Shown here one piece after another: positions 48,153 through 51,351 of a DNA stretch of 64,000 nucleotides. The stretch spans positions 1 to 64,000 of IMG/VR virus record IMGVR_UViG_3300037067_027643; one strand, given 5' to 3'. The notes below the pieces were generated by a model. The model was given only the letters and a program-made list of their open reading frames with translations, ran no database searches and was not told the DNA's origin. The DNA comes from a virus. Taxonomy: Duplodnaviria > Caudoviricetes. Position numbers and translations under genes: made by a program. How positions within the stretch are numbered: the first letter of the stretch is position 1; every line of letters starts with the position of its first letter.

Positions 48153-49203
48153 TTAATTATGTGATTCAAGATAATTAAAATTATTCAACCAACCAATTAT
48201 ATCTTTTACTAATGTCATCCTGTCTTCTGCAAGCATTCTTATAAAATTACTTTTAGATAGATGATTTCTTTCATTATTCATCTGAACGCTGATCTTATTT
48301 TTAGCAAACTCACTAATATCAACATTATGAAGTTGCATTAATTGTTCATTTAATCTAAGTTGTTCTCGATTCGCATTAATACTATTATATGTATTACTTG
48401 TAGATTCTTTTTCACTTGAAATATTAATGATATCTTCTACCGTTACTCTTTTATCTTGTTCAAATAATACTGGAAATCTCTTCTGTAATGTTTTTAATCC
48501 TATTCCCTTTATTCCTGGTATATTATCACTTTTATCACCTGTTAAAGCTCTGTAAGTAAGATAATTTTCTGGACTTAATTCATATTCAGTGAATACTTTG
48601 TCGGTATCATATAATATCTTTTTAGTTGGACTCCATACATTACAACCATCATTTACCAACTGTAAAAAATCTCTATCACTTGACATTACAGTTACATTAT
48701 ATCGATTAGTATCATTAAAAATACTTCTACACATATAAGCAATAGTATCATCTGCCTCTATATTATCTACTGATATTAATGTTACTGGTAATTCATGTAA
48801 GTAATCCATTAATCTTAATAGTTCATACTGCTGTTGTTTAGAGTCTTCTTCTGATGTATCGTAAAAATCAGGTCTTAAAATCTTATGAACTCTTCTTTGT
48901 GATTTATATTCTGGAAACAGTTTTCTCCTTCTTACAGATCCTCCTTTACCATCAAATACTATATATACTTTATCTGGGTTACATAGTTTTATAGCATATC
49001 CTAAACTTAGTAAGCTTCCTGTTATTCCACCTATATGAATAGCATTTTCATTGGTATTTGGTGCAACACTATAAGAACGAATAAATAAGTTTGGCTCAGA
49101 GGCCGTCGATAATCAAGATATTACTCCTGATATCGACGACCTTATTACCATTATTTTTAGCTTGTAGCATTTCTGTAAAACGCTTTAATAGATTGTTATT
49201 CAT
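48153..49203 (-). CDS. 5'-3' exonuclease / T4 RNase H (FEN-like), interrupted by a 7-nt insert at 49092-49098
   Basis: Frame 1: M..ILIIDGL-stop. Shifted frame: NLFIRSY..VFDGKGG..RR..FPEYK..EADD..SDRDFLQL..GDKSDNIPGIKGIG. Confidence 0.8.
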
Positions 49204-50431
49204 CTCCCGCTGAGCCGTTATCAATTTCTATCTCGTCAGTATCATAATTAGGTTCATTCATATTACTTGATTCTAAACTACTATCATTTTTCTTATACTT
49301 CATAATCATTGAATCACATATATCTTTATACATCCCAGCTTTTATTTCTGGTCTTTCAAGTAATAATGGTTTAAATGTTTTTTTAGTAAATTTTACTACT
49401 TCTGCTGTTTCTTTATCAACCCAGGTATAATTTGATCCAGAACCATCTATAAGTCCTCTATCAGACATAGTTTCAATCCAACTGCCTAAGTTATCTATTC
49501 CACTATCAAAATAAATATTAAATATAGCTTTTCTATGAGGTGGACCAAATCTATTTTTAATAACTTTTACTTCTGTTCTTGCTCCAATTACTTCTTCTTT
49601 TCCTTTTGGACCAATTTTAATTTGTCCTATTTGTGCAATTTTTAACCTAGCACTTGCATAGAATTGTAATGCCTTACCACCGCCAGTCGTGGACTTATCT
49701 CCGAACATTACTCCTAGCTTATCTCTAAGCTGGTTATTAAAGATAAGAAGTATATTTTCATTAGCAATTAGTTGTTTTATTTTACGCAATCCTTTAGACA
49801 TAATAATCGCCTTCGCTGTTGACCAACCATCTTTATCGTAATCACTTTCCATTTCTACCTTTGTTGATGCAGCGGCAATTGAATCTACTATAATAGTAAC
49901 TAATCTTTTTTTGCTTGATTCTCTTACTTTTGAAATAATATTTTCGATTGCTTCAAATATTTCTTCTACCAACGCTAATTGAATATATACAAATTTCTTT
50001 GGATCAGTATCTACACCTATAGCAGATAGAAACTCAACATTTAAAGAATTTTCTGTGTCTATATATACTGGTAATCCACCTTTCCGTTGAGTGTCCGCCA
50101 TAATATGCCCTGATATCAAGGATTTCCCAGATGCTTCCCATCCGAAAAATTCCAAAATTCTTGCACTAGGTAAGCCTCCATTAGGTCTATTACTAATCGC
50201 GATATCTAACACATCACTACCTGTGGAAACCCAGTCATTTAAGTCAGATGGAGTTTCTTCACTTCCATCAAGATAATAAGCTACTTTTTCATATTCTTTA
50301 CTAAACTTTTTATTTAAGCTTTCAACAATACTTAATGATAAACTATCTTGTATTTCTGCTTTAGATTTTAATTTAGAATCAACTACCCCAGAATCATCCG
50401 GAGTAGTTTCTATTGATTTCTTTTTTGCCAT
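49196..50431 (-). CDS. recA: RecA/UvsX recombinase
   Basis: GWEASGKS, YIDTE, VDSIAA, NQLR, GGKALQFYAS, KNR. Confidence 0.93.
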   Translation of the reverse strand: MAKKKSIETTPDDSGVVDSKLKSKAEIQDSLSLSIVESLNKKFSKEYEKVAYYLDGSEETPSDLNDWVSTGSDVLDIAISNRPNGGLPSARILEFFGWEASGKSLISGHIMADTQRKGGLPVYIDTENSLNVEFLSAIGVDTDPKKFVYIQLALVEEIFEAIENIISKVRESSKKRLVTIIVDSIAAASTKVEMESDYDKDGWSTAKAIIMSKGLRKIKQLIANENILLIFNNQLRDKLGVMFGDKSTTGGGKALQFYASARLKIAQIGQIKIGPKGKEEVIGARTEVKVIKNRFGPPHRKAIFNIYFDSGIDNLGSWIETMSDRGLIDGSGSNYTWVDKETAEVVKFTKKTFKPLLLERPEIKAGMYKDICDSMIMKYKKNDSSLESSNMNEPNYDTDEIEIDNGSAGDE

Positions 50432-50439
50432 ACTTACTA

Positions 50440-51351
50440 TTAATTAAAAATTTCATCAAATGCTTGATTAACATCTTTTGTTGCTGTTGGCTTAATAGTA
50501 GCAGCTGTAGGTTTTACTGTAGTAGATGGAGTAGTTTTAGCGGTAGCTGTTGCAATTGATTTATTTACAACTACTTGTTTTGGTTTTGGTTGTTCAACAA
50601 CTGGTTTGGTTTCTTCTACCACCTGTTCTTCTACAACGGTTTCTTCTGTTTCATCGGTAGTTGTTTGTTCTTCTGTGTTTGTAGCAGTTGTTTCGCCTCC
50701 TGGTTCTAACCATTTAGCTAACATATCAGCTAATTCATCATAGGTAGATTTTGGATAGATATTATAAATATCAGTTTGTTTTGTTAAAATCAAATCTAAT
50801 ACAGCAGGATCATTAGTTGCTTTAGTAACATTTGGTTTTACTCTAACACTAATTTTGCCATATTTATTCTTTGCTACAGCTGGTTCAGTAAATTCTACAA
50901 CTATATCTCTTCCAGCATTTAAATCTGTAATATCACCGTAATCTGGATCTGTAGTGATTTTTAATAATTCTTGATATTGATCTTTACCAAATCCCCAAAA
51001 TTTAACTCCTTCTTTTTCTTTTCCTCTTACAATAATAGGAACAAATACTCTTAAAGATGGTTCTAATTTTTTTCCTAGCATCCAATCATCTTTATCTCCG
51101 GTGTTTTGAAGTGATAATGCAAATTCTTCAATTGGATCTAATTCTCCAAATGTTGTTAATGCTAATGGTTTTTTCTTACCACAGTTATAATGAAAATATA
51201 ATTCAATAAATGGATCATCTTTTCTAAATTGATAAGGTACAATTCTGATAATGTTTTCACCTGGTGCAGGTTTCCACTTGTTTTTGTTTACATTTGTGTT
51301 ACTTTGCAATGCTTTTAATTTTTTTCTCATTGCTTCTACGTCAATTGCCAT
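50440..51351 (-). CDS. Single-stranded DNA-binding protein (T4 gp32-like)
   Basis: WKP..G...IRIVP, FWGFGK, DITD...GRD, acidic tail. Confidence 0.8.
   Translation of the reverse strand: MAIDVEAMRKKLKALQSNTNVNKNKWKPAPGENIIRIVPYQFRKDDPFIELYFHYNCGKKKPLALTTFGELDPIEEFALSLQNTGDKDDWMLGKKLEPSLRVFVPIIVRGKEKEGVKFWGFGKDQYQELLKITTDPDYGDITDLNAGRDIVVEFTEPAVAKNKYGKISVRVKPNVTKATNDPAVLDLILTKQTDIYNIYPKSTYDELADMLAKWLEPGGETTATNTEEQTTTDETEETVVEEQVVEETKPVVEQPKPKQVVVNKSIATATAKTTPSTTVKPTAATIKPTATKDVNQAFDEIFN

Follow-up and report, generated by a model that had tools for sequence, protein, structure and literature searches.

A 7-nt insertion at the foot of a conserved hairpin in a phage 5'-3' exonuclease gene: a candidate for corrective +1 frameshifting

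Introduction

How can a gene that is still needed live with an indel that breaks its reading frame? The 'corrective' frameshifting of indels is a recognised class of recoding (PMC5009743), and +1 frameshifting at CUUUGA increases, on 70S and 80S ribosomes alike, when a stable hairpin refolds beside the E site, to an extent that scales with the stability of the stem (PMC3639245, PMC6321510). With 70S ribosomes in vitro, this hairpin effect was seen only without RF2 (PMC6321510). No natural bacterial or phage example of an upstream refolding hairpin that stimulates a +1 shift was found in the literature that we searched.

Here we describe a phage gene in which such a hairpin, a stop codon and a frame break lie side by side. 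Its product is of the Pol I-type 5'-3' exonuclease/FEN kind, represented by the Taq 5' nuclease (1TAQ), T5 D15 (1EXN), immuto gp6 and the enzyme of Mel-JY01, all of which have the same two Pfam domains; with the exonucleases of large phages it further shares the catalytic residues and the gene order gp32-recA-exo-DnaB. Those exonucleases are uninterrupted single ORFs of 340-360 aa with a canonical DG-x2-L-x2-R spacing, whereas the gene described here is split. The stretch of DNA that we analysed, called the window below, comprises the first 64 kb (64,000 nt) of a 285,744-bp IMG/VR virus record (~26% GC). A protein database places the genes of the window on a contig of 318,275 nt, while the IMG/VR record of 285,744 nt is classed as 'provirus'; the difference implies that ~32 kb of flank were trimmed as host-like.

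Results

Layout of the split gene

All features of the locus lie on the minus strand, and their coordinates are those of the window:

49196..50431, minus strand: recA-like recombinase gene, 411 aa (ORF with a PF00154 match of 191.8 bits)
49198-49196, minus strand: recA stop codon TAA, overlapping the exonuclease ATG (49203-49201); overlap sequence ATGAATAA
49096..49203, minus strand: exonuclease part 1 in frame 0, 35 codons (MNNN...SNILIIDGL) and TGA (49098-49096)
48153..49097, minus strand: exonuclease part 2 in the +1 frame, GAG CCA AAC ... stop (48155-48153), 314 codons
49093..49102, minus strand: lesion, 10 nt (CCTCTGAGCC) in place of ATT in the relative L008, net +7 by pairwise alignment
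49095..49104, minus strand: proposed shift site GGC CUC UGA G, inside the two-frame overlap, read from the sequence
49100..49142, minus strand: mRNA hairpin of 18 pairs with one bulged U (49112) and a loop at 49124-49119

Frame 0 can be aligned with the N-termini of 21 homologues as far as DGL and ends in ATC GAC GGC CTC (49101-49099) TGA (49098-49096), which yields a 35-aa product. The +1 frame, open on the minus strand from 49112 to 48153, continues with ..EPNLFIRSY.. (EPNLFIRSYSVAPNTNENAIHIGG); its earliest ATG, GTG or TTG stands at 48809, 101 codons in, and only the 17 nt of 49112-49096 are open in both frames. The computed products are 347 aa long if 7 nt are removed and 349 aa long after a +1 shift. 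A preliminary description of the locus had reported a gene interrupted by exactly 7 nt (TGAGCCA, 49098-49092), with an ATG overlapping the end of recA, a length of 347 aa after deletion and a GC-rich stem before the TGA. Each of these points is confirmed, the stem being the hairpin of 49142-49100 listed above. In practice, gene callers shorten the exonuclease to 218 aa. The synteny of gp32, recA, exonuclease and DnaB helicase is common to Flavobacterium phage immuto, Microcystis phage Mel-JY01 and an uncultured 484-kb phage, each of which encodes the exonuclease in a single ORF of 341-350 aa.

Identity of the encoded protein

The same description had labelled the gene RNase H, a name that has to be abandoned: the product belongs with the enzymes of the Pol I-type 5'-3' exonuclease/FEN kind rather than with those that have an RNase H fold, and RNase H (PF00075) is absent from the phage genome. 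The label reflects a relation of function, as the exonuclease is the functional analogue of T4 RNase H. The part in the +1 frame matches PF02739 with 85.9 bits against a cut-off of 34.3 (87.1 bits in a genome scan, which found a single copy of this gene in the phage), and the C-terminal H3TH/SAM-fold DNA-binding domain matches PF01367 with 47.3 bits against a cut-off of 40. All acidic metal ligands (in DG, FDG, EADD, SxDxD and GDxSD) are present in the predicted +1 product, and D33, D84, E149, D151, D152, D176, D178, D223 and D226 are invariant in an alignment of 37 sequences (A4), the +1 product among them. D33 is encoded in frame 0, the remaining catalytic acidic residues in the +1 frame.

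An AF2 model of the 349-aa +1 product has a mean pLDDT of 89.5 and places G34-F40 in the beta1-alpha1 loop. It indicates that the predicted fold tolerates the additional EP in silico, which speaks for plausibility only and is not evidence of activity. In the model the break coincides exactly with the beta1-alpha1 loop, which would suit an enzyme made in two pieces, with the 35-aa peptide (a helix and beta1 with its Asp) complementing a re-initiated C-terminal fragment, or with that fragment active by itself. We consider such an arrangement very improbable: the +1 frame offers no ATG, GTG or TTG over its first 101 codons, the few AUU-type codons are not preceded by an SD, and a fragment without beta1 would miss a metal-ligand Asp.

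Size and reality of the 7-nt excess

In the motif D-x4-[FY]-x-R, four residues separate the Asp from [FY]-x-R in each of the 121 full-length homologues that we fetched, none of which has an insert, and an alignment of 21 homologues shows (L/I)(I/V)D(G/S)(L/M/T)N(T/L)FIR at the junction, again without insert. The nearest relative for which DNA is available, the JGI contig L008, has ATT ATC GAC GGA TTA AAT TTG TTT, that is IIDGLNLFIR, without the 7 nt. From the uniform spacing of the homologues and from L008 it follows that the excess amounts to exactly 7 nt. The window gene has no single continuous frame with canonical spacing, and its +1 product has six residues in place of the four; in an alignment with Taq polymerase, a 2-residue gap opens opposite the extra residues.

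Could the 7 nt be an artefact of sequencing or assembly, for which nothing speaks beyond the general prior for metagenome contigs? A Logan contig from a 2018 landfill run matches the window over 1,704 nt with 0 differences, a Logan contig of 11,101 nt from a 2022 groundwater run has the same sequence with the 7 nt at a word depth of 19, and an ENA MEGAHIT contig with 1 difference in 5,797 nt carries them as well. These three matching assemblies may include the source sample, so that they rule out an assembler error, yet do not count as independent lineages. The same letters thus come from three assemblers and at least two studies, and the 7 nt recur in a relative of ~93% identity described below. 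Moreover, part 2 of the exonuclease is the sole start-less long ORF that lies on a coding strand in the entire genome, so the assembly is not ridden with frameshifts and no further broken genes are apparent. Given the three assemblies and the diverged relative, an assembly error is excluded, and we regard an artefact of either kind as barely conceivable.

Further copies of the site were sought in several ways. A DNA search of a phage collection with the exonuclease gene gave no match, a protein-pattern scan of IMG/VR found no relative, and the exact site pattern had a single chance match in IMG/VR, on an unrelated GC-rich contig (L005), and none in the JGI metagenomes. The 10-mer CCTCTGAGCC has no second copy in the genome, nor does the motif recur at another gene break. 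Templating of the insert from its 5' flank as a quasi-palindrome is not supported, with a match at only 6 of 13 positions.

The invariant spacing in the 121 homologues also bears on how the gene might be read, as only a bypass of the 7 nt in translation, or their removal from the RNA, would restore the canonical DGLNLF, and a stop codon beside a strong structure loosely resembles T4 gene 60. Both routes are nevertheless highly unlikely. None of the codons of frame 0 recurs in cognate form 7 nt downstream (the take-off and landing pairs would be GAC/UCU, GGC/GAG and CUC/CCA), so a hop to DGLNLF lacks codon support; a hop from CUC to the CUU 12 nt further on would stay in the dead frame; and Rfam gave no match at the site. 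We know of no RNA processing that removes 7 nt in bacteria or phages. Thus, of the three mechanisms that the preliminary description had offered, only the +1 shift fits the codons, whereas the 7-nt hop and the micro-excision are left without support.

Inheritance of the insert

The relative of ~93% identity, X3, is a 282-nt contig from a 2025 freshwater study that spans 49000-49265. It differs from the window by 19 substitutions and one in-frame 3-nt deletion (49150) and has no indel at the site; hence it also carries the 7 nt, and the insert has been inherited. The insert is accordingly found in a second study and in a diverged relative, and is missing from L008. None of the listed differences of X3 falls within 49054-49160, a tract that comprises the hairpin and the site together with the codons just after it, whereas the adjoining 105 nt on the upstream side contain 13. 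Site and putative stimulator are therefore conserved among the relatives with the split gene, as judged from one relative, X3, whose identical 107-nt tract could be a recombination patch instead of a sign of constraint.

Downstream of the site, the listed differences between contigs of the X3 run and the window are at 48414, 48417, 48429, 48441, 48444, 49035 and 49053. All seven are synonymous third positions of the +1 frame, for which the chance under neutrality is roughly 0.25^7; just two of the seven (49035 and 49053) lie on the contig that spans the site, and the other five count on the assumption that they come from the same strain (depths 3.9 and 4.9). At the other end of the gene, the exonuclease ATG has become ACG in X3, and a neighbouring change creates a GTG one codon upstream, so the frame-0 ORF keeps a start. 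Both the loss of the ATG and the gain of the GTG (window 49224-49196) are synonymous in the recA frame.

Constraint on the gene and broken alleles in the clade

In comparison with L008, the downstream part of the exonuclease has a dN of 0.037 and a dS of 0.49, a ratio of 0.075, where recA gives dN/dS values of 0.23/0.93 and gp32 of 0.23/0.85. Judged by these values, the exonuclease is the most constrained of the three neighbouring genes. Relaxed constraint or further lesions, as expected of a pseudogene, were not found: the 314 codons are free of stops and the seven listed differences of the X3 run are synonymous, in a small sample. Conservation between window 48153-51351 and L008:305-3105 is mosaic, with 95% amino-acid identity in the exonuclease and ~69% in recA and gp32, which suggests either a recent exchange of the exonuclease segment or a far stronger constraint on it.

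L008 has a break of its own in the same gene. At L008:2860-2875, homologous to window 48752-48760, a 2-nt deletion turns ATAGAGGCA into ATAGGCA; it breaks the frame within the catalytic NIEADD motif, with a TGA two codons on. This deletion could reflect an error in the contig as well as a genuine null allele. As no frameshift could mend it without losing the Glu, broken alleles exist in the clade, unless the contig is in error. A search based on RecA found a contig with a 61%-identical RecA that appears to carry a fragmented exonuclease, and no further close relative. A search for shorter homologues returned the L008 fragment, a chimeric contig, L009, and two distant split copies, L010 and L011, which we judged to be background error or variation and uninformative for the site. 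The two distant homologues have 63-66% identity (L010:2545-2910 and L011:82-1121) and are split after 'KIRL' and 'SIRLNR', near residue 105, in a Lys/Arg-rich stretch; homopolymer errors or variants without a relation to our site are the probable cause of these splits.

Against this background the window could hold a young null allele, which arose when the hairpin acted as a hotspot for a complex indel that knocked out the exonuclease, any frameshifting being incidental. T4 RNase H is not essential. In the same way as for T4 rnh mutants, Pol I or FEN of the host would substitute for the lost enzyme, and drift, hitch-hiking or complementation in co-infections would keep the allele in the population for some time. 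This account, including the substitution and the temporary persistence, is doubtful in our view, yet it is the main rival of a frameshift and has to be taken seriously. It agrees with the lack of the insert in L008, with the failure of any homologue to tolerate extra residues at the junction (121 of 121, and Taq), with the second, unrescuable break in the same gene of L008 and the possibly fragmented copy on another contig, and with a lesion that resembles one mutational event and comes with neither a classical slippery codon nor a correctly spaced SD. It fits less well with an insert common to two lineages about 5-7% apart, from different studies and years, with the compensated start codon in X3, with listed downstream differences that are all synonymous, and with 314 codons of 26% GC DNA in which no second lesion has appeared. 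Finally, the gene that would have been given up is the most constrained of three neighbours and the only copy of the phage. The earlier opinion that the locus represents recoding rather than decay is thus supported by the inherited insert, the synonymous differences, the status as sole 5'-3' exonuclease and the constraint, but it is not proven.

A hairpin older than the insert

ILIIDG is encoded by the 3' arm of the hairpin, whose last two bases are the first two of the CUC codon, and the 5' arm contains an SD-like AGGAG (49128-49124). For the 111-nt context the folding energy is -34.4 kcal/mol (z = -4.85), a value matched by none of 200 shuffled sequences. In a scan of every 48-nt stretch of the 285,744-bp genome, on both strands, the hairpin came first with -26.5 kcal/mol, followed by a fold at -19.9. 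Its antisense strand reaches -18.8 kcal/mol only, and such a weaker antisense fold is what one expects if G-U pairs matter, that is, if the element acts as RNA on the sense strand. That this most stable of all folds adjoins the only broken gene, at ~50 nt in 286 kb, cannot be put down to chance; the hairpin either provoked the indel, made it tolerable, or did both.

L008 has a homologous hairpin of 17 pairs (-21.4 kcal/mol, z about -5.7) without the insert, and in eight more distant relatives a hairpin is absent (z about 0). Between the hairpins of the window and L008, 12 of 45 columns differ, with one full exchange of G-C for U-A and a coordinated change of register, and chimeras of their arms lose 6-11 kcal/mol. 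The two stems thus show compensating changes, and by this evidence the hairpin is a selected RNA element of a small clade. A degenerate hairpin pattern found nothing in IMG/VR and the GTDB genomes, and Rfam likewise has no matching family.

L008 has the hairpin but lacks the insert, so the hairpin came first and was not built for recoding; it must therefore have, or have had, another role. The earlier view of it as a dedicated recoding signal is only half right, since the hairpin predates the lesion. Near the start of recA, at 50365-50412 on the minus strand (about codons 7-22), stands a second strong hairpin, which ranks sixth in the genome scan with -19.0 kcal/mol and is conserved in L008 with base changes that keep the pairing, even though the RecA proteins are only 69% identical. 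Hairpins early in ORFs may be a regulatory habit of this replication and recombination cluster.

Discussion

How, then, is the split gene expressed? It still looks selected despite its 7 nt, and so it is probably read by a +1 ribosomal frameshift. Taking all evidence together, we see the balance as even on whether full-length exonuclease is produced by corrective frameshifting at GGC-CUC-UGA with the aid of a hairpin that refolds on the 5' side. We more tentatively propose a natural frameshift of the bacterial +1 type, for which the refolding hairpin was co-opted, first rescuing and then fixing the 7-nt indel; similarly tentative is the joint claim that the resulting enzyme is active with two extra residues in a catalytic loop of invariant length. 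The shift itself, its exact codon, its efficiency and the stimulatory role of the hairpin are what we infer from the lesion and its inheritance, from the hairpin and its conservation, and from the constraint on the downstream frame, which are directly observed.

In this scenario, a complex indel would have replaced ATT by CCTCTGAGCC, with a net gain of 7 nt, at the 3' foot of a pre-existing, selected hairpin, and the allele would then have been inherited while the gene was kept under purifying selection. Ribosomes that start at the recA-coupled ATG would unwind the hairpin and stall at one of two points: the P site would be occupied by GGC and the A site by the very rare CUC, or else, one codon on, by CUC and UGA, respectively. 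As the very stable hairpin refolds just behind the ribosome, beside its E site, slippage forward by one base would be favoured. Decoding would resume at GAG CCA AAC and give ...IIDGL-EP-NLFIRS..., an enzyme of 349 aa whose beta1-alpha1 loop is longer by two residues. A shift with CUC in the P site would yield DGL-EP-NLF, one with GGC in the P site DGS-EP-NLF. Ribosomes that do not shift would release the 35-aa peptide, by which the output of exonuclease would be lowered relative to RecA.

Several features of the site bear on this scheme. The conserved Asp-Gly needs frame 0 and the overlap extends over 49112-49096 only, so a shift has to take place at GGC, CUC or UGA. As in prfB, an in-frame stop codon occupies the A site 3' of the shift codon (CUC UGA). 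CTC accounts for 1.0% of the Leu codons of the genome, of which it is the rarest, and GGC for 3.2% of the Gly codons; however, both came with a single indel and are not independent evidence of selection. Several points weigh against the +1 reading. Re-pairing after the shift would probably be poor for CUC to UCU (by wobble, at positions 1 and 3 only) or partial for GGC to GCC (two of three pairs kept). An SD-like stimulator ~3 nt upstream of the shift codon is lacking, as the AGGAG ends 22 nt upstream and is too far for an SD effect of the prfB kind; the element proximal to the E site is the hairpin instead. As seen from the alignments, the additional EP would sit at a junction of invariant length directly after the catalytic Asp. 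Lastly, the frame break of L008 and the possibly fragmented copy hint that broken alleles circulate.

Other forms of recoding were considered and rejected. Quadruplet decoding or a suppressor tRNA finds no candidate among the 22 phage tRNAs, none of which has an unusual anticodon loop and none of which is for Leu. An alternative code with TGA as a sense codon would carry frame 0 no further than a TAG nine codons on, and 19 of 180 long ORFs have TGA as their stop. Against genome-wide recoding stands the absence of any other start-less long ORF on a coding strand; CTCTGAG occurs just once more, in frame as Ser-Glu. The 22 tRNA genes form a cluster at 89199-93581 of the genome, outside the window and on the minus strand, without a tRNA-Leu although Leu is mostly encoded by TTA; tRNA-Trp (88 nt), tRNA-Met (82 nt) and tRNA-Asp (81 nt) are unusually long.

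A real shift would make this, to our knowledge, the first case in nature, among bacteria and phages, of an upstream refolding hairpin that drives +1 frameshifting, at a prfB-like CUN-UGA site with a natural stimulator and born from an indel. As a clean case of a frameshift signal that arose from a tolerated indel at a pre-existing structure, it would bear on the origins of recoding sites, and similar hairpin-adjacent breaks in other large phages could be mis-annotated as pseudogenes. If the allele is null, the locus exemplifies a strong intragenic hairpin as an indel hotspot in a phage replication gene, which would be ordinary, yet useful for annotation.

Among known systems, E. coli prfB (RF2) with its CUU UGA C comes close in several respects: in both genes an early in-frame UGA directly follows a P-site Leu codon of the CUN type, a 5' stimulator, putative in the phage, adjoins the E site, and a short dead-end peptide is the product of ribosomes that do not shift. 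In prfB the stimulator is an SD:anti-SD duplex 3 nt upstream, whereas here it would be an intramolecular hairpin; CUU-U re-pairs, whereas CUC-U cannot do so in the same way, and the autoregulatory logic of RF2 has no counterpart in the exonuclease. The prfB site is conserved across bacteria and its shift restores the native sequence, in contrast to a site that is confined to one shallow lineage and looks like a corrected indel, with a product that gains two residues.

T4 gene 60 is likewise an interrupted phage gene related to replication, and its break, too, coincides with a stop codon and a strongly structured part of the mRNA. Its gap measures 50 nt, compared to 7 nt here, its matched take-off and landing codons are absent from the exonuclease gene, and its structure encloses the stop, while ours lies 5' of it. 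Corrective frameshifting, as in the G-run mutants of herpesvirus TK and at mitochondrial +1 sites (PMC5009743), shares with our locus the tolerance of an indel in an otherwise intact, needed gene. Those cases make use of homopolymer runs or of rare or unassigned codons, where the phage replication gene would use a stop codon and a pre-existing hairpin. Also close are the synthetic refolding hairpins of the Chang laboratory (PMC3639245, PMC6321510), which equally place a stable hairpin immediately 5' of CUN-UGA; they are engineered reporters with a 70S effect in the absence of RF2, whereas in the exonuclease gene the arrangement is natural and its stimulatory effect putative.
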